This document shows positions 6,035-39,126 of a stretch of DNA of 64,000 bases, one piece after another; within the stretch, counting starts at the first letter, position 1, and the number at the start of each line of letters is the position of its first letter. Made by a program: the position numbers and the translations under genes. Source of the DNA: Candidatus Latescibacterota bacterium (GTDB lineage Bacteria > Latescibacterota > UBA2968 > UBA8231); contig OZ253462.1 of NCBI GenBank assembly GCA_965261395.1, positions 4,320,001-4,384,000 of the forward strand, read 5' to 3'. The notes beneath the pieces were generated by a model. That model did no database searches. It had not been told where the DNA came from and saw only the letters and a list, made by a program, of their open reading frames with translations.

Positions 6035-7270
6035 TTGACTACTCCCAATCCTAAAGGAGTTGGGATTCTTGGCAGCGTTAAGCCGCCGCAGACTGTAGCC
6101 CCAGTCTGCAAATGTTACGCGCCGCGTTTGCGTCTCGGTCGCAGTCCAGACCGCAAAAGGGGCACACATGCCGGCGCACCGAAAGCGCCTTTTGCAAGCG
6201 ATGCCCGCAGGCCGAACAATCCTGCGACGTATAGGCCGGGTTCACGGCGACCAAGTGCCTACCAGCTTCTTCCGCTTTGTAGGACAGGATTTGCCGGAAC
6301 TGCGACCAAGCGGCGTCAGAAATACTTTTGGCAAGGCAGCGGTTGCGAACCATGGCCTTGACATGCAACGCTTCTACGGCGATCAGGCCATAGCGGTTGA
6401 CGATGCGCCGTGCGTGCTGATGCACAAAGTCATGCCGCCGACAGCGGATGCGCTCGTGGACACGGGCAACCACCTTGCGGGCTTTCTGGCGCTCAGGGGT
6501 TCCCTTGGCGGCCTTGGCCAGTTTGCGTTGTGCCTTCGCCAGCGCCTTTTCGTCTTGGCGGAAGAAGCGGGGGTTGTTGACCGTCTCGCCATTCGACAAC
6601 GTGGCGAACTGCTCCAGCCCGACGTCGATACCTACCGCTTCGTCGCTTTTGGGCAACGGTTGGTTTGCCACCTCGCAGACGATGGTGGCAAACCACTTGC
6701 CCGTCGCACGGCGGCGGATCGTGCAGGTCTTCGGCTTGCCTTCCAAGGGCCGAGACCACGCACCGCGCAAGCACCCGATCTTAGCAAGCCGCAAGCCCTT
6801 GTCGTCGAGGCGAAAAGCGGTCTCTTGCGGATAGGTCAGGCTATCGTAGCGGCCAGCGCCTTTGAAGCGGGGAAATCCGGGTTTCTCACCCCCGTCCTTG
6901 CAGCGGCGATAGAAGGCCTGAAAGGCCAAGTCAACGCGCACGGCCACGTTTTGCAAGACTTGGGAATAGACCTGTGCTAGGGTGGAACGATCCGTCTTGA
7001 GAAAGGGCAACTGGTTGATCTGCTCGTAGCGGCCAAAGGATACCCCTCGGTCCTTATAGGCTTGGATGCGATCCACGACGAAGTGGTTGTAGAGCATTCG
7101 GCATTCTTCGAGGTGAGCCGCCAGGGTCGTAGCCTGTTTTGCCGTTGGTCTCAGCCGATATTGGAACGCTTTATGCATACCAGAAGACATAGCGCAAAGA
7201 GAGCACCGACACAAGGGGATGATGCTAAAGCCGCTCTTATATCCAAAGCCTAAAGGCAGTTTGATAAAAC
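6035..7270 (-). mobile_element. Non-autonomous IS200/IS605-family (IS1341-like) element carrying tnpB only
   Basis: Right end on minus strand GAAT-CCCAACTCC(TTTA)GGATTGGG-AGTAG-TCAA (6069-6035); related bulged TAAA-loop hairpin at ~7243-7263; no tnpA; left boundary approximate. Confidence 0.8.
6078..7190 (-). CDS. tnpB: RNA-guided endonuclease TnpB
   Basis: KAFQYRLRPT N-terminus; RuvC GIDVG, AVEAL, DRDANAA; zinc finger CSAC...CPFC; start at 7190 or 7178. Confidence 0.95.
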   Translation of the reverse strand: MSSGMHKAFQYRLRPTAKQATTLAAHLEECRMLYNHFVVDRIQAYKDRGVSFGRYEQINQLPFLKTDRSTLAQVYSQVLQNVAVRVDLAFQAFYRRCKDGGEKPGFPRFKGAGRYDSLTYPQETAFRLDDKGLRLAKIGCLRGAWSRPLEGKPKTCTIRRRATGKWFATIVCEVANQPLPKSDEAVGIDVGLEQFATLSNGETVNNPRFFRQDEKALAKAQRKLAKAAKGTPERQKARKVVARVHERIRCRRHDFVHQHARRIVNRYGLIAVEALHVKAMVRNRCLAKSISDAAWSQFRQILSYKAEEAGRHLVAVNPAYTSQDCSACGHRLQKALSVRRHVCPFCGLDCDRDANAARNICRLGLQSAAA

Positions 7271-7430
7271 TGGACAGTTCTATTGCCAACAATGAAGTTG
7301 GCCTAAAAACTATTTGTCAACGGATTATTGCGTTGTAAGAGCAGAAAGAAAGTTTGGACGCAGAGATCGTAGAGCTTGATATGCAGATTGTCGAACTCAA
7401 ACAACAAATCGCCGACGCTCCTGAATTCTC

Positions 7431-7548
7431 ATCGAGGATTTGGCCAAGGAAGGGTACGGAGAGTACGCGGCCCTCTTTGAATGAAGCGCTAAGCCTTTAG
7501 CGCATCGTAGAAATGCAAACGGCCGGATAACCGCACCCAGAATCGGGA
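7431..7548 (+). pseudogene. Displaced 3' fragment of an msrB homolog (repeat copy 2)
   Basis: Encodes [17 protein letters not shown] versus [17 protein letters not shown] in msrAB. Confidence 0.9.
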
Positions 7549-7549
7549 G

Positions 7550-8329
7550 TCAAGAGCGCACTTCATCCTCCGTGGGGCACTCGGGCGCGAAAACACTTCC
7601 AAGGTCCACGGTTATTTGGGCGTAGTGTCTACTCAGCCACTGTTTAGCTTTTTCAGTCTCTGGGCAGAGGCTTTGCACCGTCAACCAGAACTTGACCGAG
7701 TGATCCGGAATGGCCAGATGCACTATCTCATGGGTAATCAGGTACCGGAGAACGAAGTCCGGCGTGAGAATAAGTCGCCAGTTGAACGAGAGATTCCTAC
7801 GCGAGGAGCAGTTGCCCCACTTGGTGCGCTGACCCATCACATATATCCGTTCAGGTTGCTGACGGATGCGTGCGGTCATGACAGAAAGGTAACCCGTTAT
7901 CGCCGCGCGAGCCTGCTTTCGCAGCCAGTTCTCGAGGCCGCGTGCCGCCGGCGTCCGCGTGTTCGAGCCCCGACGCACTATGATCCCACCATCAGTCAAG
8001 CTGACGGAGTTTCCTCGCGCCTTCGTCTCAACGAATTCGACTCGTACTGGGGTCGGTTCACCGCGAAACAAGATCTCGCCAAGTGGGCGCCGTTCCGGCC
8101 GCCTCACACCGCGAAGACTGGACACCCGGTCGATCTGAGCGAGCACCCAGGTCCCGTTCCTGCGCAGAAACGACGATACCTCCTCGTCGCCAATACCAAC
8201 GGGTTGTACGACCTCGACGCCGCGCGAGCCGATTCGAACGCGGGCCTGCCTAGCATCCTTCGAAACTACGACATCATACTCAATGCAGCGGCCGCGCAGC
8301 AGAATCTGGCGTTGCGTCGATGGTCTCAT
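7550..8329 (-). CDS. M48/YgjP (DUF45) zinc metallopeptidase-like protein associated with type I RM
   Basis: QRTKWGNCS, FNWRL, HEIVH, HSVKFW; directly downstream of hsdR. Confidence 0.9.
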   Translation of the reverse strand: MRPSTQRQILLRGRCIEYDVVVSKDARQARVRIGSRGVEVVQPVGIGDEEVSSFLRRNGTWVLAQIDRVSSLRGVRRPERRPLGEILFRGEPTPVRVEFVETKARGNSVSLTDGGIIVRRGSNTRTPAARGLENWLRKQARAAITGYLSVMTARIRQQPERIYVMGQRTKWGNCSSRRNLSFNWRLILTPDFVLRYLITHEIVHLAIPDHSVKFWLTVQSLCPETEKAKQWLSRHYAQITVDLGSVFAPECPTEDEVRS

Positions 8330-26982: not shown

Positions 26983-28344
26983 CTACGTCTGGATAGCGGC
27001 CTCTAACGCCGCTTGTCGCATGGCCGCGCGTTCGGCCGGATCGCTCCAGCGCTGGACGATCATCGGGTCGAGCGCATCTAAGGGGTCGTAATAAAAGAAG
27101 AACTCGCCGGGCCGCACGGCTGGGCTGGTAAATACGGCGATGCCCGTCTGGCGATCATAGTGTTCGTAGGAGTGGACATCGCGTTTCCCACCGCCCCCCA
27201 TAGTGTCGAGCACAAAGGCCGGCGTATTGAACCCAGCGGTCCGCCCCCGAACCGACTTCTCCAAGTCGATCGCCGTCGCTAAGGTCGTGCGTAGCTCTTC
27301 GACCCCGCGAACCATATCGTGGACAAAGGTGTAATACGGATGCACGTTGAGATAGCTGAGCCGCCGCACGAGATTATGCATGGTGTCGACGTCGTCGTTG
27401 ACGTCCTTTTGCAAGACGGTTTGGTTGCGCACGCAGATGCCGCGCTCCATCAATTCGTCGAGTGCGTGGCCGCTGATGGCCGTGATTTCGCGCGGGTGGT
27501 TGAAATGCGTGTGCAGCGCGACTTCCTTGTGAACCTTGCGCCCCGCTTCGACAACTCGTGTAAGGGCATCGACCCACTCTCGGTCTGTAACGAGTTTCTG
27601 CGGCATAATCGCCGGAGCCTTCGTCGCGTAGCGCATCCGCCGCACATGCTCAATGTTGAGCAAGCGAGTGCCGATGTATTCGATGTGTTCGGCCTTGAGG
27701 TTGGCCACATCGCCGCCGCTGATGACGATGTCTTCTAACTCGGGTCGCGAAGAGACATAGGCAAAGACCCGCTCCCACCGCTGGACAACGGCCCCAAAAT
27801 GCACTTTTTCCACATCCTCGGTATCCAACCCCACCGCATAGGAGCGGGTACAGAAACGACAGTACACCGGACAGGTATCGAGCGTCAAAAACAGCGCCCG
27901 GTCGGCGTAGCGATGAGTCAGGCCCGGCACGGGGGAATCCACTTGCTCGTGCAGCGAATCTAAGGCGAGTTCCGGGTGATCGGGCCGCATCCGCGACCCC
28001 ATGGGCAGAAACTGAATGCGTAGGGGATCCGTAGCTGGCTCCGACCAGTCGATCAAACTCAGCAGGTACGGGGAAATCCGCAGACTCATCGGCGAACGCA
28101 AAAGTCCCTGCTCGACGTCTCGATAAAACGCCTCTGAAACGAGGCTACCAAGCACTTCCTGCAGCTTCTTTAAGCTCGTCACGCTATTGCGGCTCTGAAA
28201 GCGGTGCTCGTGGAACTCATCCGCACGCAAATCGGCATAGGCGGGAATAGCGCGCCAATAGTCGTCGTCGCGCAAGTCCCGGTGGGAGGTATCAATTACC
28301 GCGCTGGTAGGCGGCGTCAGCACCTGCTCTTGAATCTCAGACAT
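26983..28344 (-). CDS. KamA-family radical SAM/PLP aminomutase
   Basis: GLTHRY, CPVYCRFCTR, ISGGD, THFNHPREI, GGGGK. Confidence 0.9.
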   Translation of the reverse strand: MSEIQEQVLTPPTSAVIDTSHRDLRDDDYWRAIPAYADLRADEFHEHRFQSRNSVTSLKKLQEVLGSLVSEAFYRDVEQGLLRSPMSLRISPYLLSLIDWSEPATDPLRIQFLPMGSRMRPDHPELALDSLHEQVDSPVPGLTHRYADRALFLTLDTCPVYCRFCTRSYAVGLDTEDVEKVHFGAVVQRWERVFAYVSSRPELEDIVISGGDVANLKAEHIEYIGTRLLNIEHVRRMRYATKAPAIMPQKLVTDREWVDALTRVVEAGRKVHKEVALHTHFNHPREITAISGHALDELMERGICVRNQTVLQKDVNDDVDTMHNLVRRLSYLNVHPYYTFVHDMVRGVEELRTTLATAIDLEKSVRGRTAGFNTPAFVLDTMGGGGKRDVHSYEHYDRQTGIAVFTSPAVRPGEFFFYYDPLDALDPMIVQRWSDPAERAAMRQAALEAAIQT

Positions 28345-28363
28345 GGGTCCGTCCCGTACTGCT

Positions 28364-28990
28364 TTAATTTTTTTTCATTAAATTGAAAAATTCTTCGCGT
28401 ACTATCGGCTCGGCAAAACGGCCCCGTAGCGCCGAAGTGGTCGTCACCGCCCCAGGCCTTTCCACTCCCCGCATCTCCATGCACAAATGTCGAGCCTCCA
28501 TTACGACGATGGATCCTTTGGGTGCCAGCTTGGCTTCAAGGAAGTCCACGATTTGCTGGGTGAGACGTTCTTGAAGCTGGGGCCGGCGGGAATAGAACTC
28601 GACAATGCGCGCGATCTTGCTCAGACCAACGATGGTTTCCCCAGGTATATAGGCTACATGTGCCTTGCCGAAAAACGGGATCATGTGGTGGGAACAAACC
28701 GAAAAGAACTCAATGTTCTTGACGATCACCATGTTGTCGTAGCCATCGCTATTGGGAAAGCAGGTAATCTCCGGTTCGCCTTGGTCGTCCAGTTCCCGAA
28801 AGATCTCCATGTACATCCGCCCGACGCGGTCGGGGGTGCCTCGCAAGTGCGGATTGCTCAAGTCGAGCCCCAAAACCTGCATGATCTGGGCGAAGTGGCC
28901 GGCTATTTCGGCGGCCTTGGCCTTGTTCTGGCCCTGGAGCCAACTCGGAGTATCTCGCTCGCTAAGCGACTCTGCCGGCACATCTTCCAT
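28364..28990 (-). CDS. folE: GTP cyclohydrolase I
   Basis: TPDRV, CSHHMIPF, GLSK, RPQLQERLT, HLCMEMRGV. Confidence 0.96.
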   Translation of the reverse strand: MEDVPAESLSERDTPSWLQGQNKAKAAEIAGHFAQIMQVLGLDLSNPHLRGTPDRVGRMYMEIFRELDDQGEPEITCFPNSDGYDNMVIVKNIEFFSVCSHHMIPFFGKAHVAYIPGETIVGLSKIARIVEFYSRRPQLQERLTQQIVDFLEAKLAPKGSIVVMEARHLCMEMRGVERPGAVTTTSALRGRFAEPIVREEFFNLMKKN

Positions 28991-29074
28991 TGCGTACTTT
29001 CCTTTGCGGGCACTATAAACAGTGGGGCAAAGCCGTTTGTGCCTTGCCCCACTCTACTGCGAAAACGAAGTGCT

Positions 29075-29542
29075 TCAGTTGAGCGATTGCAAACAAGCCC
29101 TAATGGCCGCAAAATCTGGCAGGACCTTGGGGGTGTCAGATACCCAAGCGTAGCGGACGACACCTTGCCCATCGACGACAAAGGCCGAGCGCTTGGCAAC
29201 GCCTTTGAAGCCCAACAGGTCTTCGTGCTGGGCACCGTATGCGGCGGAGACCTCCTTGTTGAAATCGCTGAGTAGCGGAATCTCAATGCCTTCCTTTTCG
29301 GCCCAGGCGCTGAGGCTAAACGGGCTATCGACGCTGATTCCCAAAACCTGGGCATCGAGATCCTGGTACGCATTGATCCCGGCGGAAATCTCGCAAAGCT
29401 CCTGCGTACAGACACCGGTGAAGGCCAGCGGCACGAAGAGCAAGACGACGTTTTTACCGGCGAAATCTCCAAGGCTTACGTCCTCCATGTCCGCATTCTT
29501 GAGAGCGAACGCAGGCGCGTTGTCTCCTACTTGGATCGCCAT
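29075..29542 (-). CDS. Peroxiredoxin (AhpC/TSA family)
   Basis: PLAFTGVCTQELC (PxxxTxxC), LLSDFN, RSAFVVD. Confidence 0.92.
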   Translation of the reverse strand: MAIQVGDNAPAFALKNADMEDVSLGDFAGKNVVLLFVPLAFTGVCTQELCEISAGINAYQDLDAQVLGISVDSPFSLSAWAEKEGIEIPLLSDFNKEVSAAYGAQHEDLLGFKGVAKRSAFVVDGQGVVRYAWVSDTPKVLPDFAAIRACLQSLN

Positions 29543-29545
29543 CTG

Positions 29546-30166
29546 CTAACTCCCCATCGCCTCGGCAAAGCGGCGATTGACTTCATTCCAGTTGACGATG
29601 TCGGTCCAGGCTGCGATATAGTCGGGCCGGCGGTTCTGGTAGTTAAGATAATAGGCGTGTTCCCAGACATCGATACCGAGGATGGGAACTCCGTCGCCAG
29701 TCATCAGGGGATTATCCTGATTGGCGGTGCTGAGGAGGTCTAGCTTGCCGTCCTTGACTACGACCCAAGCCCAGCCGCTGCCGAACCGTTTGGTTGCGGC
29801 TTCCACGAAGGCTTGGTGAGCCTCGTCTTGGCTACCGATTGCGGCTTCCACGGCAGCCAGAAATTCAGCCGAAGGCTCGCCGCGTTCCCCTGCTGGAGCC
29901 ATGATCTGCCAAAATAGGCTGTGGTTGGCATGGCCGCCGCCGTGGTTGCGCACCGCCGTGCGGATGCTCTCGGGGACGGCGTCAAGGTCGCTGATGAGGT
30001 CTTCGACGCTTTTAGCGGCCAAGTCATCGTGCCCTTCGAGAGCAGTGTTGAGGCTGGTCACGTAGGTATTGTGGTGCTTGGTGTGGTGAATCTCCATGGT
30101 GCGGGCGTCTATGACAGGCTCTAGCGCGTCATAGGCATAGGGGAGATCGGGAAGAGAGTGGGCCAT
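29546..30166 (-). CDS. sodA: Superoxide dismutase, Mn-type signature
   Basis: [35 protein letters not shown]. Confidence 0.95.
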
Positions 30167-30210
30167 GGTCAATCCTTTCGGCTTGAGGTTAAAAGACAAG
30201 CGAGAATGAG

Positions 30211-30588
30211 TTAGGGGGCGGTACTGGCTTGGTAGTTTTTCACTAGGGCCTGGGTCGCGTCAGCGGCCAGTTGGGCGGCGTGGCGCTTCATTGGCGGCAG
30301 CCCCCCTAGCGCCTCCTCAATAGCTGCCGGCTCTAGCTGAGCCGCGTCCACCAATAGCAAGTCTGCCAGCAACTCGGTGAGTACCGAGCCAGCCGCGACC
30401 GAAGGGGCGCAGCCAAAGGTCTTACAACTAGCGCGGATGATGCGACCGTTTTCGACGCGGGCAAAAAGCTGCATCGCATCGCCACAAGCCTGATTTTCAG
30501 CTTGCCCCGAGGCATTGGCGTCACCGATTTGTCCAGCGTTTCGGGGATGCCGGTAGTGATCGAAAACCGCTGCGCTAAAGGAGGTCAT
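30211..30588 (-). CDS. IscU/NifU-like Fe-S scaffold
   Basis: [29 protein letters not shown]. Confidence 0.85.
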
Positions 30589-30633
30589 CTACTCGCTTCA
30601 ACAGCTAGTAAAGAGGTCCGAGAAGTGGGTTGT

Positions 30634-30662
30634 ATAATACTTGTGGCCACGGGAGTTGTCAA
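30634..30662 (-). promoter_or_regulatory. Near-consensus sigma70 promoter for iscU-sodA-prx
   Basis: TTGACA-17bp-TATTAT. Confidence 0.65.
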
Positions 30663-30712
30663 CCGCATATCCCCCTGAACTGCAATCTATACAATGAGTT
30701 ATAGCCACCACA

Positions 30713-31036
30713 TCAGGCTTGGAGACCACCGGAACCGCCCGGCCCACCAGAACCGCAATCCCGCCAGTAGGTCCGCACCATCTGCAAGATGTCCCAGAGT
30801 ATGGTATCCTTAGCTACTTGATCGATCAACACGTGCAGCCTCGCGGCCTTCTCAGGTTCGATCAGCCCCAGTCCGCTCATCATCGTCAGGTGATGGATCA
30901 AGCCCGTTTGCAACAAAGTGCGATTCATGTCTGAGAGAGGGATACTGCTTTTGTTGGAGAACTCCTCTTCGAGGCCGGCATAGAGTTCGGCCAAGCTGTG
31001 GGAAAGTGTGGTCTCGACTTTGTAAACTTTTTCCAT
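30713..31036 (-). CDS. Hypothetical protein
   Basis: 107-aa ORF with GAGAGG RBS and upstream TTGACA-16bp-TATATT (31069-31096). Confidence 0.6.
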   Translation of the reverse strand: MEKVYKVETTLSHSLAELYAGLEEEFSNKSSIPLSDMNRTLLQTGLIHHLTMMSGLGLIEPEKAARLHVLIDQVAKDTILWDILQMVRTYWRDCGSGGPGGSGGLQA

Positions 31037-31124
31037 GCGCCTCTCGCCCTTGTGGGAGCCTTGCGGTTAATATACCCGGCGCGTTTCCACTGTCAACAAG
31101 ACTCGGCCCGGAGGACGCGGTTGG

Positions 31125-32555
31125 TCATTTGGCAATGATTTGGTATTTGCGGAGCAAATGTCGAAAGCGATCGTAGGTCAAGCCCAATTGCTGTGCCGCG
31201 TCTTTCTGCTGCCCTCCCACTTTGGCGAGCGCACCGTCGAGCAAGCCCCGCTCGACGCGCGCGACTTGCTCATCGAAACTGCCCCCATCGGGAAGGGCAA
31301 CGCCACTGCCGCCGCGTACTTCCGGGGGCAAGTCCTCCACGACCACTTCATCTCCTTGCGCGACGCAGAGGGCGCGCTCGACGGCGAATTTGAGTTCGCG
31401 CACATTGCCCGGCCAAGTGTAGGTCTCGAGCGCGGCCAAAACGCCTTTGGCGAACGGCCGTCGTTCAATCGCCGGCACTTCGTCGCATAGCTGCTGAGTA
31501 AAGTACTCAACCAAGGGCCGGATGTCCTCGGGCCGCTCCCGCAAGGGCGGTAGCTGGAGCACGCTAAACCGCAGGCGGTCGTAGAGGTCAGCACGAAATT
31601 GCCCGCTAGCTATTTCCCGCTCCAGATCCGCGTTGGTCGCCGCCACGACGCGCACGTCAACGTGGATCGTCTGCGTCCCACCCGTGCGCTCAAATTCTTG
31701 ATATTCTATGACGCGCAATACGTTTTTTTGGAAGTCCAGTGAAGTGTTGCCGATCTCGTCGAGAAAAAGCGTGCCGCCATTGGCGGCTTCAAAGCGGCCG
31801 TGGCGCATTTCGGCCGCGCCCGTAAAGGCCCCTTTCTCGTGGCCGAACAGCTCGCTTTCGAGCAAGGTATCCGATAGCGCCGCGCAGTTCATCTTGACAA
31901 AGGCCCGCTCACGGCGATTGCTCCCGTAGTGCAAGGCGGCGGCGATCAATTCCTTGCCAGTGCCGCGCTCGCCGCAGATCAACACGGGCCGCGGTATGGA
32001 GGCGATTTGTTCAACTTGCTCTAGCAGGTCCTGAATCAGGGAACTGCGGCTAACAATCTGATAGCGCTGACCTAGCTGGGTCCGGTAAAAGGTGTTGTCG
32101 CGGCCCAAGGTCTCGTTCTCGGCCTTGAGGCGGGCGTTTTCGCGCAATACCGCCAACATCCGCTCGACCTTTTCCATCTCCACTTCGAGCTTGTCCTCAA
32201 CGTACAAGTCCTTCTCGATAAAATCCGCCGCCCCGGCCTGCACCGCTTCGACCGCCAAGTCAACGCTTCCCTTGCCCGTGAGAATGATAACCGGCAGCTC
32301 GGCCCACTGCTTTTTGATCTCTTTCAACACTTCGAGGCCATTGGGCTGGCCAGCGCCAAAGTCAAAGTCCAGCACCACAAGTTCGACGTCCATCGGCCTA
32401 GCGGCTAGATGCCCGAGCAACCGCTGGCCATTGGAAAACGAGATGACTTCCTTGCCCAAACTGCGCAGCTTCTCCGCCAACATCTCGCGCAATTCCCGCT
32501 GGTCATCGGCGATTAAGACGGCTTTCTGTTTTTTGCCTACCATGACCATCCTCAT
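31125..32555 (-). CDS. Sigma54 enhancer-binding response regulator (REC + PspF-like AAA+ + HTH)
   Basis: REC (IADD, VLDF, FIEK); GERGTGKELIA, GAFTGA, LRVIEY, FRADLYDRL; C-terminal LGLTYDRFRHLLRKYQI; start 32555-32543. Confidence 0.92.
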   Translation of the reverse strand: MRMVMVGKKQKAVLIADDQRELREMLAEKLRSLGKEVISFSNGQRLLGHLAARPMDVELVVLDFDFGAGQPNGLEVLKEIKKQWAELPVIILTGKGSVDLAVEAVQAGAADFIEKDLYVEDKLEVEMEKVERMLAVLRENARLKAENETLGRDNTFYRTQLGQRYQIVSRSSLIQDLLEQVEQIASIPRPVLICGERGTGKELIAAALHYGSNRRERAFVKMNCAALSDTLLESELFGHEKGAFTGAAEMRHGRFEAANGGTLFLDEIGNTSLDFQKNVLRVIEYQEFERTGGTQTIHVDVRVVAATNADLEREIASGQFRADLYDRLRFSVLQLPPLRERPEDIRPLVEYFTQQLCDEVPAIERRPFAKGVLAALETYTWPGNVRELKFAVERALCVAQGDEVVVEDLPPEVRGGSGVALPDGGSFDEQVARVERGLLDGALAKVGGQQKDAAQQLGLTYDRFRHLLRKYQIIAK

Positions 32556-32571
32556 TCAATTCACTGAAAGG

Positions 32572-33927
32572 CTAGGTCTGACCGCCCGCGAAATTGAGCG
32601 GCAGATCGAGCCGAAAAACGGTCCCATGTCCCTTTCTGCTCTTGACGCGCAGCACGCCCTGGTGGGCTTGGGCGATGCGGCGCGCAATGCTCAAGCCATA
32701 GCCATTGCCCCGCTCCCTAGTGGTAAATCCAGGCTCGAATATCAATTCCAAATGCTCTTCCTCAATGCCTGGCCCATCGTCCTCGACCTCAATAAAGACC
32801 AGCGACTGCTCCCCGTCGTAGCCAGCACCCACCACCACTTGGCCACCACGTCCTTCTTCGAGGATTTCCAACGCGTTGAGGCAGAGGTTAGTAATGGCCT
32901 CGCGCAGCATCCGCTCGTCGGCCTCTACGCGCGGCAAGCCCTCTTGGACCCGCGTCTGGATCGTGGATTTCCAAGTCTGTCGGCCAAACCCAGCGGCCAC
33001 CCTGCGCACCAAGCTCCCGAGATCGACCACCGCCGGGTGGATTTTATCCGTTTTCATCGCTTCCAAGAACCCCACCCACTCGTCGTACAGAGCCTCGTAT
33101 TCGCCCCCTAAGCGATTCAACTCCCCCCGCTGCGCCTCTTCGGCCTTGCGCCCTAACCCTCGCAAGCGGCTGCCGATGATCCCCATCAGATTCTTGATGC
33201 GATGCCCCTTCGTGTAAAACCCCTCGTACACCTGCTCCTTTCCCAGCTCGACCATTTCCAGCGACAGACGAGCGAGGACTTGTGGAGCGCTTTGCTCAAA
33301 TTCCTCGCAGATGTGCTGGTATTCTTGTTCTAATTCAGGGGGTTTTACATGGCGAAAAAACAAACGGGCCAAATTCGCGTACGGCTGACTGAGCTTGGGG
33401 TCGAGCTGGATGGCTACCTTGAATTCCCCCATCGCCCCCAACACTTGGCCGCCTTGTAGCAAAAGCTGACCCAAGCTGTTGTGCCCAACCGCCGAAAGCG
33501 GGTTGAGCGCCAGCCCCTGGCGGAACGCGCCGATGGCTTCTCCACGCCGCTGCGGATCTTCGTTGTATTGACTGCCAAGAGCGAAAAAGACGCGATCGAG
33601 AGCTGGGTATTCGCGCCCTTCCTCGGCCGCGCGCACGATGGCCTCAAAGTGAGTCAGCGACCGCTCGCGGAACCGGGCATTGCGCCGTCCTTGGCGCATT
33701 GCGAGCAAGCCGAGTTGGTAATGACTTTCTAGATGCCCGCTCTCCGCGGCCGCTTCCAGCGCTGTGATGCCCACTTGCTCATCCCCCAGTTCCAAGAGAC
33801 AAAGCCCTTTGCGATGCTGAAGCTCCAAGTCATCGGGCTCCTGCGCTAGGCCGCGCTCGCACCACTCCAGCGCCTCGGCCCAACGCGCACCTTCACAAGC
33901 CTCTACAGCGCGGTCAAGCCAATTCAC
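32572..33927 (-). CDS. Soluble TPR-repeat histidine kinase
   Basis: N-terminal TPR-like repeats; H-box GHRIKNLM; NLCLNA, EDDGPGI, IFEPGFTT, GNGYGLSI; no TM segment. Confidence 0.9.
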   Translation of the reverse strand: MNWLDRAVEACEGARWAEALEWCERGLAQEPDDLELQHRKGLCLLELGDEQVGITALEAAAESGHLESHYQLGLLAMRQGRRNARFRERSLTHFEAIVRAAEEGREYPALDRVFFALGSQYNEDPQRRGEAIGAFRQGLALNPLSAVGHNSLGQLLLQGGQVLGAMGEFKVAIQLDPKLSQPYANLARLFFRHVKPPELEQEYQHICEEFEQSAPQVLARLSLEMVELGKEQVYEGFYTKGHRIKNLMGIIGSRLRGLGRKAEEAQRGELNRLGGEYEALYDEWVGFLEAMKTDKIHPAVVDLGSLVRRVAAGFGRQTWKSTIQTRVQEGLPRVEADERMLREAITNLCLNALEILEEGRGGQVVVGAGYDGEQSLVFIEVEDDGPGIEEEHLELIFEPGFTTRERGNGYGLSIARRIAQAHQGVLRVKSRKGHGTVFRLDLPLNFAGGQT

Positions 33928-33930
33928 GGC

Positions 33931-34299
33931 CTAGCCTTGCTCTCGTTGTTCCTGGCGCTCCCAAGGTTTAGATTCTGCCCCGTCCATATGGTCAATCTTT
34001 TCGCTGAGAGCAATCATGACGTCCTGCACCTCGGTCAGCCGCTGCTCGACTGAGGCCAACCGCTCCCGCAGTGCGTCTGGCTCAATGCCCTTGTCCTCGG
34101 ATACAGTCGCCTTGAGCTTGAGGTATTCGGCAACTTTGGCGATGCCGAAAATCGCCACAGCGGCCAACAAGAGTGGCGTCAGAATGACGGGCCCCATCAG
34201 ACCGAAGGAGCTCGGGTGGCTGGGAAACGCAGAGAAAAAAAGAACACACAACGCGATACCAGCGAGGAATCCGAAGACGATCCCCTTATTCTTGTCCAT
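33931..34299 (-). CDS. Small membrane protein with C-terminal coiled coil (PspB-like)
   Basis: Two TM segments then LRERLASVEQRLTEVQDVMIALSEKID; AAGGAG RBS. Confidence 0.7.
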   Translation of the reverse strand: MDKNKGIVFGFLAGIALCVLFFSAFPSHPSSFGLMGPVILTPLLLAAVAIFGIAKVAEYLKLKATVSEDKGIEPDALRERLASVEQRLTEVQDVMIALSEKIDHMDGAESKPWERQEQREQG

Positions 34300-34465
34300 G
34301 ATTAGCTCCTTTCCCTCTCTTCGATGGAATTAACTTTTTCAATCAGCTCTTCTTCCCATCTGCCTTTTTCGTGCTCCAAGGTTTAGCTCCTACCCCGTCC
34401 ATGTAGTCGATCTTTTCGCTGAGGGCAATCATGACGTCCTGCACCTCGGTCAGCCGCTGCTCAAC
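33958..34465. repeat. ~90-bp duplicated segment (about 33958-34050 and 34373-34465) encoding the shared C-terminus of the two PspB-like genes
   Basis: GCAATCATGACGTCCTGCACCTCGGTCAGCCGCTGCTC is identical in both copies. Confidence 0.9.
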
Positions 34466-34618
34466 TCGCTCTAGCCGCTTGACGATCAAATCCTCTTCCT
34501 CTTTGGCTTTTTTGTCCCTTCGCTTGCGGCTCGAATAATACTTGTTGCCCCAATTGACCAATCCACTGCACAGGATGATGAGACATACGCCAATGGCGAC
34601 CTGCAAAAACCCATTCAT
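34343..34618 (-). CDS. Small membrane protein with C-terminal coiled coil (PspB-like), paralog of 33931-34299
   Basis: One TM, basic linker, RLERVEQRLTEVQDVMIALSEKID; GGAG RBS. Confidence 0.7.
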   Translation of the reverse strand: MNGFLQVAIGVCLIILCSGLVNWGNKYYSSRKRRDKKAKEEEDLIVKRLERVEQRLTEVQDVMIALSEKIDYMDGVGAKPWSTKKADGKKS

Positions 34619-34721
34619 TTGCTCCCTCCCTGTCTGAGCCTATGCACGCGCCAGCCATGAGCACGTGCCATTGAATCGCTGCAAAAACCAGTTCACTTGA
34701 TCCCGCCTTTGCCTGTTTGTA

Positions 34722-35246
34722 TCAGGCGCTTTCGACGCCCCGACTCCAGTGTTTTTCGTGCGCGAAAAGCACTTCTGGAAAGCGATAGACGATCAGACCC
34801 GAATCGGTTATTTCGACCTCGACGAATCCCCCATCGGCCAAACGCTTGAGAATCTCCGAGGCTTCCTCGACCGTCAGCCCGGTATCGGCCGCCGCTTCGG
34901 TCACCGTCAGGCGGCCACTTCTCTTCTGAGCCAGACGCACCACGCGGTTTTGTTGACGGCGGTAGCGGACCAAATGCGCGGCTGCATCGAGCTTTTTGGC
35001 CAGTATCCAGAGCAAGCTGCCAAAAATGGTCTGGGTGACGCCAATGGCAAAAAACTCGAAATGGGAATCTGGACCATCGGCATGGAGGATTTGAAAAAGT
35101 CCGTAGAGCATAAACCCCAGCCCCATCGGCACCATCGGCACGGCCATTACCTTGAGAAAAAGAGCGCCTAGGCGCTTGAATCCCCCTTCCATAGCACTTC
35201 TTACCTCGCTTTTTGCCGCGTTGGGCGGTCTCATCGTCATAGCCAT
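34722..35246 (-). CDS. Two-TM membrane protein with C-terminal winged-helix-like domain
   Basis: Two hydrophobic segments; GRLTVTEAAADTGLTVEEASEILKRLADGGFVEVEITDSGLIVYRF. Confidence 0.75.
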   Translation of the reverse strand: MAMTMRPPNAAKSEVRSAMEGGFKRLGALFLKVMAVPMVPMGLGFMLYGLFQILHADGPDSHFEFFAIGVTQTIFGSLLWILAKKLDAAAHLVRYRRQQNRVVRLAQKRSGRLTVTEAAADTGLTVEEASEILKRLADGGFVEVEITDSGLIVYRFPEVLFAHEKHWSRGVESA

Positions 35247-35293
35247 CAGTTCTCCGAATTCAGCAGTCGCACAACATGCTGCGGGCCATAGGG

Positions 35294-35968
35294 TTACTTA
35301 TCTTTTTTCATCTTGTCCTTTAAAGCCTTCAATTCGTCGTCAACGCTGTGATCTGCTTCGATTTGGCGGATCTCTTTCTCAACATCTTCCATCTCGCCCG
35401 AAATCTCTACGTGCGCGGCAGCTTCTGCCTCGCTCTCTTCGACTTTCTGCTCAAAGCGCTCAAAACTGGAAAAGGCGTCCTGACCCAACCCGGAAATGCT
35501 TTGGGCGAGACGCTTGCGGGCCTGGGCAGCTTGGTGGCGAGCGATCAACGTGCCCTGTCGGGTCCGTGCTTCTTCGAGCTTGGTCTTTAGCTCGCGTAAC
35601 TGCTCGCGCAATTGCTCGGCCGTCTGCCGACTCTCCTCCACGGCCGGAGCCAGATCCTCGGCCGCTTTGGCAAACACCGCTTTGCGCTCCAGCGCCCGTC
35701 GCGCCAGCACATCCTCGCCCGCTTCCACCGCCCGTTCGGCCTTGCGCTGCCATTCGGCTACCTGGCTTTGCTTGTCGTTGAACTGGCGCTCGAGCCGCTT
35801 GTGATTGGCCACAGCGGTCCCGACCGAGGCCGTGGCCTTGCCGACTGCCTCTTCCATGTCCCGCACCATTTGGCGGATCATCTTGTCCGGCTCTTCGGCC
35901 CGGTCGAGCATTTCGTTGATATTGGACTTGAGGATATCGCTTATCCTCGCAAAGGCTCCCTTAGCCAT
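35294..35968 (-). CDS. pspA: Phage shock protein A (PspA/IM30/Vipp1 family)
   Basis: FARISDILKSNINEMLDRAEEPDKMIRQ, AGEDVLARRAL, FERFEQKVE, VDDELKALK. Confidence 0.95.
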   Translation of the reverse strand: MAKGAFARISDILKSNINEMLDRAEEPDKMIRQMVRDMEEAVGKATASVGTAVANHKRLERQFNDKQSQVAEWQRKAERAVEAGEDVLARRALERKAVFAKAAEDLAPAVEESRQTAEQLREQLRELKTKLEEARTRQGTLIARHQAAQARKRLAQSISGLGQDAFSSFERFEQKVEESEAEAAAHVEISGEMEDVEKEIRQIEADHSVDDELKALKDKMKKDK

Positions 35969-36017
35969 CGTACACCTTCCTTGATTGAGTGAAGCTTATC
36001 ATGCGTTATTCCTAACT

Positions 36018-36033
36018 TGCAAGAGCTGTGCCA
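36018..36033 (-). promoter_or_regulatory. Sigma54 (-24/-12) promoter of the pspA operon
   Basis: TGGCAC-AGCTC-TTGCA matches the TGGCAC-N5-TTGC consensus, 50 bp upstream of pspA ATG. Confidence 0.88.
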
Positions 36034-36194
36034 AAAATGCCAGCACATCCGTAATTTATTACAGCCCATTGTGTTATAGACAAAACATATATCGAATTAC
36101 CACTTGTTAATGGCCAGATTCGCCACTTGACTGGCGTCATTGGCCATTTTCGCTCCTTTAGTTATTATAACAAATCTTCAAAAAGGATCGTGCC

Positions 36195-37637
36195 ATGGCC
36201 AATCCATTGGTCTTGATCGGCTTGGGTGTCTATCTCGCGGTGATGCTCGGCGTTGGCCTATACGCTGGCCGCCGCGTCCGCAACTCGACCGACTTCATCG
36301 TCGCCGGCCAACGCCTGCCCCTGTTGCTCTGTACCGCAACCCTCGCAGCAACATGGTTTGGCGGTGGAATCTGCATTGGCGCTGCAAGTGCTGCATATAA
36401 GGGCGGCATCCTCGCGGTCATTGCCGACCCTTTTGGCGCGGCTTTGTGCCTGTTCCTCGCCGGCCTCTTTTACGTGCGGATGATGCGGCGCATGGGTTTG
36501 ATGACGATCGCATCCTTTTTTAGCCGCCGCTTCGGCCCTCGGGCGGGCCTACTGGCCAGCCTTTGCACCATTCCCGCCTATGTCGGCTGGACGGGCTCGC
36601 TCTTGGTGGCCTTTGGGCGAATCCTGCAGAGCCTCACCGGCATCGATCCCGCCATCGGCATCTGTGCAGCCGCAGTCATCGTGCTGATCTACACTTGGGC
36701 CGGCGGCATGTGGGCCGTAACGCTAACCGACTTTATCCAAGTGACCGTCCTCATACTCGGGTTGTTTATTTTGACGCCGATTCTCCTCGGCGACATGGGC
36801 GGCTGGAAGGCCCTCGTCGCTCAAATTCCGGCCTCCCGCTTCGATTTCTACCCTCGCGGCGACGCGACCAGTTGGTTGGCCTATGCGCGCGACTGGCTGG
36901 TCATCGGCCTCGGCAACCTAGCGGGCCAAGACCTAATCCAGCGCAGTCTTTCCAGCCGCGACGAAAAGGTGGCCTACCGCAGCGCGTACCTCGCTGGGCT
37001 GCTTTATATAACAGTCGGGCTATTGCCCGTTTTCCTCGGCATGGCGGGTGCGATCGTCCTCCCGGATTTGGCCGACCCCGACCTAGTTATGATGGCCCTC
37101 GCACTAAAGTACCTCCCGGATCTGGCCTTGGTCCTCTTTATGGGTGCCCTCGTCTCGGCCCTCCTGTCCAGCGCCGACAGTGCCCTCCTCGCTCCAGCGA
37201 GCGTCATTGGCTGGGACCTCCTGCGCTTTTTCAAACCCGACGCTGAAGAGCGGTCGTCGCTGCGCGTGACGCGCTGGTCCGTCCTCTTTTTGGGCGCGGT
37301 ATCTCTACTGTTGGCCCTCCGGACCGCTTCGGTGTACGATTTGATGGTCAACTCTTGGTCTGTGCTCCTCGCCTCGCTGTTCGTCCCGCTAACCGCTGGC
37401 TTGTGGTGGCCCAAAAGCAACGGCCCCGGGGCCTTAGCTTCCATAGGAGTCGGCCTGTGCACCTGGCAGATACTGAGGATGCTCTCCACGGATTTGCCGG
37501 CCGATCTTTTGGCCGTACCCTTTTCCGCCCTCGCCTTGGTAATCGTCAGCTTACTAACCCAGAAGCAGGCCCCGCCACAGCCCTTGCTCGATGCCGAGGG
37601 ACGCCCCCTGCCCTATAAAAACCGCTTGGGCATTTAA
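36195..37637 (+). CDS. Sodium:solute symporter family protein
   Basis: ~13 TM; DFIVAGQRL, ATWFGG, GGMWAVTLTDFIQ, SSADSALL. Confidence 0.92.
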   Translation: MANPLVLIGLGVYLAVMLGVGLYAGRRVRNSTDFIVAGQRLPLLLCTATLAATWFGGGICIGAASAAYKGGILAVIADPFGAALCLFLAGLFYVRMMRRMGLMTIASFFSRRFGPRAGLLASLCTIPAYVGWTGSLLVAFGRILQSLTGIDPAIGICAAAVIVLIYTWAGGMWAVTLTDFIQVTVLILGLFILTPILLGDMGGWKALVAQIPASRFDFYPRGDATSWLAYARDWLVIGLGNLAGQDLIQRSLSSRDEKVAYRSAYLAGLLYITVGLLPVFLGMAGAIVLPDLADPDLVMMALALKYLPDLALVLFMGALVSALLSSADSALLAPASVIGWDLLRFFKPDAEERSSLRVTRWSVLFLGAVSLLLALRTASVYDLMVNSWSVLLASLFVPLTAGLWWPKSNGPGALASIGVGLCTWQILRMLSTDLPADLLAVPFSALALVIVSLLTQKQAPPQPLLDAEGRPLPYKNRLGI

Positions 37638-37716
37638 TCCCAAACTTGCTTGACAGGTAGAAGCGCACGCTTAACTTGTTGGAAACTTACCACACCACTT
37701 AAAGAGGAATTTGACC

Positions 37717-39126
37717 ATGAAGATGTACATCGCCGGAGACTGGGTTGATAAAGCCGCAACCATGGACGTCGTCAACCCCTATGACGGCTCGGTCATCGAC
37801 ACCGTCCCGAGGGGCGACGCCGCAGACATCGACCGCGCCATTGACTCGGCCGAGCGCGGCACCAAGGCCATGGCCGCAATGAGCGCCTATGAGCGCTACC
37901 AGATCATCCATCGAGCGGCAGATATAATGCTAGAACGGCTCGACGACCTAGGGCGCACGATTACCCTCGAAGAGGGCAAGGTCCTCGCCGAGGGCATGGG
38001 CGAAGCATCCCGTGCCCAAGAGACTATCGTCCTGTCTGCCGAGGAAGCCAAGCGCTTGACTGGCGAAACGCTCGACCTGAGCGGGGCCTCTAACGGGGCG
38101 GGTAAATTCGGCTTTACACTGCGGGTTCCCTGTGGTGTAGTAGCCGCCATTACGCCTTTTAACTTCCCGCTCAATCTCGTCTGCCACAAAGTCGGCCCAG
38201 CCCTCGCGGCCGGCAATGCGATCATCATCAAACCCGCCAGCGACACCCCACTTTCGGCACTCAAACTGACCGAGATTTTTATCGACGCGGGCCTGCCGGA
38301 GGAAGCCATTCAATGCGTCACAGGTTCGGGCGGCGTCATTGGCGACGCAATCAGTTCCAATCCCAAGGTCCGCAAAATCAGCTTTACCGGCAGCCGCGAT
38401 GTCGGCGAACACATCTGTCAGATCGCCGGCCTGAAGAAAGTGACGATGGAGCTAGGCTCCAACGCTCCGCTGATCGTCATGCCAGACGCCGATCTCGAAA
38501 AAGTCGCCGCCGCCACCGCCAATTCCGGCTTTGCCAACGCAGGCCAAGTCTGCATCTCGACTCAGCGAGTATTCGCCAGCAGCGAGGTGTACGGGGATTT
38601 TATCGACGCCCTCAAACCCGCCGTCGAAGCCTTAACGACCGGCAATCCCCTTGACGGCGACGTCAAGATGGGGCCAATGATCCGCGCCCAAGACGCCGAG
38701 CGCGTCGAAGCTTGGGTCCAAGAAGCCGTTGGATCTGGAGCCAGCATCGTCACCGGCGGCACCCGTGAGGGCACGATGCACGCCCCGACCATCCTAGCCG
38801 ATGTAGCACCCGAGATGAAGGTCTCCTGCGACGAGATTTTTGGGCCGGCGCTCGGCGTCAGCCGGATCGACGATATCGATCAAGCCATCGCCATGGCCAA
38901 CGACACCAACTATGGTCTCAGCGCCGCAATTTTCACCGAAAACCTCAACTGGGCCCTCCAGTTTGCCCAGCAGGTGGAATCGGGCAACATCCACATCAAC
39001 TGGGGTACTCAGTGGCGCGCCGATCTGATGCCCTATGGCGGCCTCAAGGAAAGCGGCATGGGCAAAGAGGGCCCCAAATACGCGATCGAGGAGATGACCG
39101 AAACCAAGATGGTCGTCATCCATTAA
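37717..39126 (+). CDS. Aldehyde dehydrogenase
   Basis: ITPFNFP, FTGS, MELGSN, GQVCIS, EIFGP, PYGGLKESG. Confidence 0.95.
   Translation: MKMYIAGDWVDKAATMDVVNPYDGSVIDTVPRGDAADIDRAIDSAERGTKAMAAMSAYERYQIIHRAADIMLERLDDLGRTITLEEGKVLAEGMGEASRAQETIVLSAEEAKRLTGETLDLSGASNGAGKFGFTLRVPCGVVAAITPFNFPLNLVCHKVGPALAAGNAIIIKPASDTPLSALKLTEIFIDAGLPEEAIQCVTGSGGVIGDAISSNPKVRKISFTGSRDVGEHICQIAGLKKVTMELGSNAPLIVMPDADLEKVAAATANSGFANAGQVCISTQRVFASSEVYGDFIDALKPAVEALTTGNPLDGDVKMGPMIRAQDAERVEAWVQEAVGSGASIVTGGTREGTMHAPTILADVAPEMKVSCDEIFGPALGVSRIDDIDQAIAMANDTNYGLSAAIFTENLNWALQFAQQVESGNIHINWGTQWRADLMPYGGLKESGMGKEGPKYAIEEMTETKMVVIH

Follow-up and report, generated by a model that had tools for sequence, protein, structure and literature searches.

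A pspA operon of Candidatus Latescibacterota in which a soluble histidine kinase is paired with a receiver-bearing, PspF-lineage sigma54 activator

In this study, we have analyzed a six-gene cluster headed by pspA, the gene for a PspA/IM30 membrane repair protein, in the genome of a Candidatus Latescibacterota bacterium (GenBank assembly GCA_965261395.1). The window, that is, the whole stretch of DNA analyzed, comprises 64,000 nucleotides of contig OZ253462.1 (positions 4,320,001 to 4,384,000), and positions given below are window positions unless stated otherwise. All six genes are read from the minus strand behind a sigma54 promoter, with gaps of 47, 103, 43, 3, and 16 bp between them (Table 1). 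An earlier note on this DNA, made from the sequence alone, had described six co-directional, closely spaced genes, a consensus sigma54 promoter, a cytoplasmic kinase with tetratricopeptide repeats (TPRs), and the lack of both PspC and a divergent stand-alone pspF; all of these observations have held at the place described. In a profile search of the assembly, which is 95% complete, PspC (PF04024) was not found and PspB gave no match above the cutoff; nor was a stand-alone PspF found, since all 20 other sigma54 AAA+ paralogs of the genome fall outside the PspF clade. Set against the classical pspABC type, the cluster thus has a PspA homolog, no recognized PspB or PspC, and an activator gene that is not divergent. 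The genome holds three pspA homologs and carries rpoN.

Table 1. Coordinates of the pspA operon, its control region, and a second predicted target
Feature	Position	Strand	Basis or remark
Sigma54 -24/-12 promoter	36018..36033	-	Exact match
Distal enhancer palindrome (TGGYG-N5-CRCCA), predicted activator binding site	36132..36146	-	Conservation across 47 loci
Proximal enhancer palindrome, predicted	36111..36125	-	21 bp from distal palindrome
pspA (PspA/IM30, ESCRT-III-like membrane repair protein)	35294..35968	-	224 aa; PF04012 161 bits, above cutoff
Protein with two transmembrane (TM) segments and a C-terminal winged-helix-like domain	34722..35246	-	174 aa; hydropathy: 2 hydrophobic segments
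Small membrane protein 1 (one TM segment and cytoplasmic coiled coil)	34343..34618	-	91 aa; hydropathy
Small membrane protein 2 (two hydrophobic segments and the same coiled-coil tail)	33931..34299	-	122 aa
Soluble TPR histidine kinase	32572..33927	-	451 aa; TPR and HATPase_c (Pfam)
PspF-lineage sigma54 activator	31125..32555	-	Receiver (REC), sigma54 AAA+, and HTH_8 (Pfam)
Second predicted target	G000:C1:5006221-5007693 (L055 7223-8694)	-	Tandem enhancer and sigma54 site

Over 221 aa, the window PspA shares 33% identity with its E. coli counterpart; it scored below the TIGR02977 equivalog cutoff in an NCBIfam profile search. The three membrane proteins encoded behind it gave no Pfam family above the cutoff. 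The gene for the first of them, which combines TM segments with a winged helix-turn-helix (wHTH), adjoins pspA in 20/20 loci; its wHTH Pfam matches are weak, every one of them below the cutoff, and it belongs to no named family, its high-scoring ESM Atlas matches being unnamed clusters only. The two small membrane proteins are paralogs that have a coiled-coil tail of about 40 residues in common (72 to 73% identity), and their copy number differs among relatives. The earlier note had called both PspB-like, which stands for their topology but not for sequence kinship: the profile probability was 5.6%, and none of 16 members matched PspB. Kinship with PspC was likewise undetected by sequence comparison. 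These proteins therefore appear to be PspB-like in shape and topology only.

Profiles and trees agree in placing the activator in the PspF lineage and not among generic NtrC proteins. Of the NCBIfam profiles, PspF scores best (TIGR02974; 367.5 bits, below the equivalog cutoff of 443.55), and an alignment with E. coli PspF shows 49% identity over 312 aa, which take in a PspF-like helix-turn-helix (HTH); the GAFTGA loop is present. Its likely start is at 32543, and most relatives are 472 aa long. A tree was built from 158 AAA+ domains after 29 of 187 proteins had been dropped for tandem or short AAA+ domains. It holds a PspF super-clade of 42 rows with a support of 100, consisting of 12 stand-alone PspF proteins and 30 further rows, mostly receiver-bearing, of which the window activator is one; E. 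coli NtrC, ZraR, AtoC, and TyrR lie outside it, as do the 20 paralogs from the window genome. An IQ-TREE analysis of 58 rows recovered the super-clade with a support of 100/98, leaving the order inside it open, and a placement of the Latescibacterota activators among NtrC/ZraR/AtoC-type rows was rejected (p-AU [approximately unbiased test], 0.028). This comparison of the AAA+ domain with PspF and NtrC, which had been proposed as a check on the earlier note, sets the activator in the PspF clade. Many sigma54 activators carry two or three AAA+ domains per chain (P0127-P0146 and others) and were excluded from the trees.

Within the super-clade, the window activator is sister or basal to the stand-alone PspF branch and does not lie within it, and a single clade for all 34 noncanonical members was compatible with the data but not demanded by them (p-AU, 0.525). 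Since receivers are found on most branches of the super-clade and in several outgroups, the loss of a receiver in classical PspF would be at least as simple as a gain here, the tree leaving the direction undecided. The idea that the phage shock response had been "rewired" onto a two-component system therefore survives in part: the pairing of a kinase with a receiver on a PspF-lineage activator is indeed kept beside pspA, but the acquisition of a receiver by PspF is not a direction that the tree fixes. Two receiver-less proteins of 322 to 323 aa (P0157 and P0165) lie within the super-clade but outside the stand-alone branch; they have either lost the receiver independently or been called too short.

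Stand-alone PspF has no N-terminal regulatory domain, whereas residues 13 to 118 of the window activator match the receiver family PF00072 (69.8 bits), with D17, D18, D63, T93, and K115 as the catalytic residues. Counts of these residues were made on the loci whose reading frame was long enough, namely, 74 of 78 from Latescibacterota and 47 of 80 listed metagenome loci. All five residues are intact in 74/74 Latescibacterota activators and in 26/26 listed metagenome activators that adjoin pspA or the kinase, compared with just 3/21 of the other listed metagenome activators. Receivers are thus intact beside the kinase or pspA and mostly decayed elsewhere; therefore, phosphorylation appears to have been kept where the kinase was kept. 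The surface by which PspA binds PspF was compared as well. In E. coli, Y51, L52, and W56 of PspF form the PspA patch, with Y51 described as the main docking residue and the W56A variant as largely refractory to PspA (PMC3791423). An equivalent of W56 occurs in 12/12 stand-alone PspF proteins and in 0/121 receiver-bearing forms (0/74 in Latescibacterota). The window activator reads Y-G-R in place of the YLW docking patch, no Latescibacterota activator (0/74) retains an equivalent of L52 or W56, and the Myxococcota-like activators introduced below keep the L in 23/26 cases. Direct inhibition of the activator by PspA is therefore probably weakened or gone.

In the kinase, the predicted partner of this receiver, hydropathy peaks at 1.07, and no membrane segment is present. 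In the structural model of the kinase (pLDDT, the predicted local distance difference test, of 88), residues 3 to 193 form helical repeats; then come a long linker helix, a hairpin of two helices that begins at H242, and an ATP-binding domain. Among solved structures, the best fold matches are HisKA-type cores of the dimerization and histidine phosphotransfer (DHp) and catalytic ATP-binding (CA) domains, for example, those of ZraS, HK853, and CckA. The H-box is atypical (G-H-R/Q-x-K-N, where H is H242), and the ATP-binding boxes are intact. All 42 kinases compared, from both lineages, have H242, K245, N246, N347, and N351, and 41/42 retain the G boxes. The alignment set aside 25 segments without the N-box pattern, 6 without the H-box pattern, and 3 CheA-like mispicks, and 33 of 79 loci from the kinase search matched the ATPase part only and were used as controls. 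By the usual marks of a two-component pair, the receiver pocket with its phospho-accepting Asp, T/S, and K is complete (74/74), as are the phospho-His hairpin and the N, G1, and G2 boxes of the kinase; the acid at H+1 is missing. No Pfam HisKA match was obtained at an E value of ≤0.1, and an ESM Atlas search with the kinase returned only generic TPR kinases. The H-box motif of HWE/HisKA2 kinases looks like H-R-x-K-N, and the H-box of the TPR kinase resembles it. Membership in that group was rejected, since the TPR kinase keeps the first N-box Asn (N347, 42/42) and matches neither HWE_HK nor HisKA_2 in Pfam; the group, many of whose members are soluble, is defined by a Glu that replaces this Asn (PMC12148442).

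A scan of the window for sigma54 promoters with one mismatch allowed gave 2 matches, compared with 2.19 expected by chance, so that the match upstream of pspA proves little by itself; the weight is carried by its conservation. With a relaxed pattern, a sigma54 site was found upstream of pspA in 47/47 loci chosen to span families (two of which are duplicates), compared with 0.7% of shuffles. The same 47/47 loci have tandem TGGYG-N5-CRCCA palindromes, mostly 21 to 22 bp apart, which start 111 to 127 bp upstream of the promoter in 44 loci and 136 to 172 bp upstream in the other three. The pair has a mean of 2.3 mismatches, compared with 8.1 in shuffles, and 0/235 shuffles were as good. The consensus was picked after inspection of these 47 loci; therefore, a match in E. 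coli and a scan of the genome matter more. The E. coli pspF-pspA intergenic region contains the palindrome pair with 3 mismatches, 20 bp apart and 99 bp upstream of the promoter. The E. coli pspA promoter is reported to have two PspF sites, or upstream activating sequences, and PspF to have two target promoters per genome (PMC3709507); from its position, the palindrome pair would be the footprinted pair. In the genome of the window, 1388 sigma54-like sites were scored, and only two had a strong pair 90 to 150 bp upstream: that of the pspA operon (32.6 bits) and one at G000 C1 5007582 (31.3 bits), the next best site reaching 16.8 bits. Both precede pspA genes. The operon thus shows a feature that marks a PspF system, a sigma54 pspA promoter preceded by a pair of enhancer palindromes.

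Behind the second enhancer lie, in order, an HTH-like open reading frame (ORF) of about 68 aa, a second pspA, and a gene for a 122-aa membrane protein; the second PspA is 47% identical to that of the window over 144 aa. This enhancer and promoter are kept in 27/28 loci of the genus, the one miss being at a contig end, and the short ORF is present in 26/27 of the loci that bear the promoter. From its look, we take the ORF to be a lone Fis-type HTH, and it could be a feedback repressor. The third pspA (G000:C1:4262000-4268000, L054) has a different gene context, presumably a small chaperone-like gene, a spermidine-synthase-like membrane gene, and a gene for a flavin-dependent (FAD) oxidoreductase, and no enhancer pair was found upstream of it. 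In four metatranscriptome runs of one study, contigs cover 30/30 bins of positions 30000 to 38000, and the listed pieces in three of these runs end at 35981 to 36023 and resume near 36190; as these are contigs of a single study with no DNA control, neither observation is counted as evidence.

The earlier note had also suggested a gene-neighborhood search for the kinase and activator, and in this search the pair proved to be kept beside pspA among relatives. The order pspA, TM-wHTH, small proteins, kinase, and activator is conserved in 20/20 loci; in another set, which shares part of these loci, 46/46 have the activator behind the kinase and 43/46 have pspA upstream, the three misses being at contig ends, and twelve further loci all have pspA and the kinase, with the activator in 11. 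The nearest loci are from Candidatus Latescibacterota, with kinase identities of up to 96%. The kinase is present in 36/41 relatives and in 99/168 genomes of the phylum, all within three families, and a query with E. coli PspF matched at an E value of ≤1e-75 in 94/168 genomes, with almost all of the matches listed lying directly behind the kinase. PspC occurs in 29/168 genomes of the phylum, only one of which has the kinase (1/99 of the kinase-bearing genomes), although related genomes are not independent counts. Some records labeled Gemmatimonadetes and one labeled Planctomycetota carry activators that nest in the Latescibacterota branch, and for that reason we read them as label differences. 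Two other families have genes for an extracytoplasmic function (ECF) sigma factor, flotillin and a neighboring membrane protein, and sometimes STAS or Toastrack proteins before the kinase (L038, L039, L041, and L049). In L041 and L049, a membrane protein gene follows the activator; its product has what we take to be a PP2C-like tail. A low-complexity tandem repeat separates the flotillin and kinase genes of L049 (about 7200 to 7550).

A second lineage was recovered with an activator-only DNA motif pattern, which returned at least 80 metagenome loci with flanks. Of the 80 listed, 39 have pspA, 23 have a kinase of the same family, and 17 have both; 35, many of them short, have neither. Here the order is kinase, activator, pspA, an unnamed gene of about 130 aa, and an ECF sigma factor gene, and the source names of such proteins are Kofleriaceae, Myxococcales, and Deltaproteobacteria. 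Kinase identity between the two lineages is about 25 to 31%, with the phospho-accepting His and the ATP boxes kept, and PspA is the only nonsignaling partner common to both. In L203, L236, and L255, the ECF sigma factor is followed by a membrane protein that may be an anti-sigma factor, and in L203 and L236, a HEAT-repeat gene and two membrane genes lie upstream of the kinase. A third metagenome group, a sister group of PspF-lineage activators with decayed receivers, has no kinase; SPFH/band-7 genes adjoin the activator in 5/7 long loci inspected (L204, L209, L220, L231, and L245). Palindrome pairs like that of the pspA operon occur in some kinase-less loci (L211, L234, L249, and L264). Among 21 other metagenome loci, four have a pair of >23 bits near the activator, and just one of these has a good promoter at the right distance. 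In 301 genomes of another phylum, a Myxococcota-type activator query gave two weak matches, both beside kinases that scored like unrelated ones.

Taken together, these comparisons lead us to the reading that pspA is paired here with a soluble TPR kinase and a PspF-lineage activator with an intact receiver, and that phosphorylation by the kinase likely activates this regulator at the tandem enhancer; we put its probability at roughly 0.6. The pspA stress response would then likely be turned on by phosphorylation and not, as in E. coli, by release from PspA. We postulate that H242 takes phosphate from ATP, with the acid at position 343 standing in for the H+1 acid, and that the phosphate would pass to D63 of the activator, which would assemble on the tandem enhancer and open both sigma54 promoters. 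Levels of PspA, its membrane partners, the kinase, and the activator would rise in turn, giving positive feedback, because both signaling genes lie in the operon. It can be envisioned that the TPR repeats bind free cytoplasmic PspA, which would hold the kinase in a phosphatase state until the small membrane proteins draw PspA to the damaged membrane and so release the kinase. PspA is the input that we prefer because it is the sole nonsignaling partner that both lineages have; this step is the least certain of the scheme and is one that we infer, and in Latescibacterota, the small membrane proteins are an alternative input. With PspA as the input, the scheme would retain the E. coli logic, with phosphate as the route.

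Several observations weigh against this reading. The most direct concerns the kinase itself: of the 42 kinases, 26 have R and 16 have Q at position H+1, where 15/15 canonical controls have D/E. In HisKA proteins, the acid at H+1 is described as the general base needed for autokinase activity, and T/N at H+4 as serving the phosphatase (PMC8292422); with R/Q in place of the catalytic acid, the protein may act mainly as a phosphatase. The TPR protein would then be a sensor phosphatase that is shut off by stress, with acetyl phosphate or another kinase phosphorylating the activator, an arrangement consistent with the N at H+4 in 42/42 and with the existence of phosphatase-driven systems, such as BumSR (PMC12469816). 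We nevertheless consider it unlikely, since the phospho-accepting His and all of the ATP-binding boxes have been kept across two phyla at such low identity, and since E/D occupies position 343, a turn ahead of the N-box, in 42/42 kinases, where the controls mostly have Q (Q in 11/15 and E in 1/15), which suggests a compensating swap that would preserve kinase activity. The docking patch raises a different difficulty. The Y51 equivalent is kept in 67/74 Latescibacterota activators; therefore, some direct control by PspA may remain. Phosphorylation could be needed while PspA still dampens the activator through this remnant of the PspF docking loop, and a second PspA site on PspF has been reported (PMC6003685). 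Such dual control is less probable still, given that the other two patch residues are gone from all of the Latescibacterota activators, that AtoC also has Y at this position, and that 25/26 Myxococcota-like forms have no Y.

The control region poses problems as well. The kinase and activator genes lie behind a promoter that needs their products, and no basal promoter was established in the search for one, the best candidate being a 9/12 sigma70-like match inside the kinase gene. With the Latescibacterota matrix, no enhancer plus promoter was found at the Myxococcota-like loci; therefore, the target promoter has been shown in one lineage only. This last result, together with the 20 other sigma54 activators of the genome, would suit a kinase/activator pair that is a passenger in the operon and controls other genes, with pspA driven by another activator. 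We regard this as highly improbable, because the enhancer matches the pair at the E. coli pspA promoter, the activator HTH matches that of PspF, and the only two strong pairs in the genome scan both stand before pspA. Returning to activation by phosphorylation, a bolder joint proposal would be that the TPR kinase senses the assembly state of PspA (ESCRT-III) directly, being off with free PspA and on with polymerized or membrane-bound PspA; that its catalysis falls outside the HisKA and HWE types, with R/Q at H+1 and an acid before the N-box; and that the phospho-form is ancestral, textbook PspF having lost the receiver and gained the W56 patch, with PspA as a regulatory domain in trans. Taken jointly, these statements are doubtful.

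A sodium:solute symporter gene (36195-37637, plus strand) diverges from the cluster, and a weak sigma70-like match (9/12) at 36140-36168 overlaps the distal palindrome; the activator might dampen this gene. Downstream, a unit on the minus strand (26983-31096) has its own sigma70-like promoter (31096-31069, 11/12) and starts with an unnamed 107-aa gene and a NifU/IscU-like gene, followed by what we take to be superoxide-dismutase-, peroxiredoxin-, GTP-cyclohydrolase-, and aminomutase-like genes.

PspF is the textbook example of an activator without a sensor domain, which in E. coli is released from PspA, and how Psp systems read out membrane damage is still argued. The earlier note did not recognize the present architecture as characterized, and our literature search, made mostly without subscription journals, agrees: no receiver-bearing PspF beside pspA, and no cataloged Psp variant matching the sigma54/kinase form, was found. 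The combination of pspA with other two-component systems of the LiaRS type has already been published; it is the sigma54 form that this search did not meet. In the supplement of PMC11237479, every REC row is REC plus wHTH and the three NtrC-AAA rows have no receiver; that paper describes PspF variants without receivers and excludes both PspF and two-component systems from its detailed analysis. Elsewhere, PspF orthologs outside Enterobacteriaceae are described as hard to tie to Psp (PMC9239133), a stand-alone PspF is described in Desulfovibrio (PMC4641369), and the word "receiver" is not used in the parts of PMC3041696 searched. The present data add PspF-lineage activators paired with a soluble kinase in two distant lineages without PspC, and an E. 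coli-type enhancer in Latescibacterota. Because the signaling parts are all soluble, what a Psp sensor detects becomes a question for the test tube. Three natural states of the activator are available for the study of how PspF control evolved, namely, a phospho-receiver with a kinase, a decayed receiver beside flotillin-type genes, and a receiver-less form with the PspA patch, and the kinase offers an unusual active site.

In conclusion, the operon encodes a Psp-like system with a PspF-lineage activator, yet it is of neither the classical pspF/pspABC type nor the Lia type. Like the enterobacterial Psp system (divergent pspF and pspABCDE, with pspG), it has a PspA effector, small membrane partners, a sigma54 promoter with a paired palindromic enhancer, a PspF-lineage AAA+/HTH activator, and two target promoters per genome; however, its activator has an intact receiver, lacks L52 and W56, and is cotranscribed rather than divergent, its kinase is a soluble TPR protein, PspC and a recognizable PspB are missing, and the second target is another pspA operon, where E. 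coli has pspG. As in the NtrB/NtrC, ZraS/ZraR, and AtoS/AtoC systems, the regulator has the domain order REC-AAA+-HTH and the kinase has a HisKA-type DHp-CA fold, and NtrB is soluble, as is the TPR kinase; unlike in those systems, the AAA+ domain groups with PspF, and the kinase has a TPR input and R/Q at H+1. In the Bacillus LiaIH-GFSR and actinobacterial PspA-PspAA operons, too, a pspA homolog is clustered with a dedicated kinase and response regulator (PMC11237479). Whereas those operons use membrane kinases and REC-wHTH regulators, the Latescibacterota operon has a soluble kinase and a PspF-lineage sigma54 AAA+ activator.

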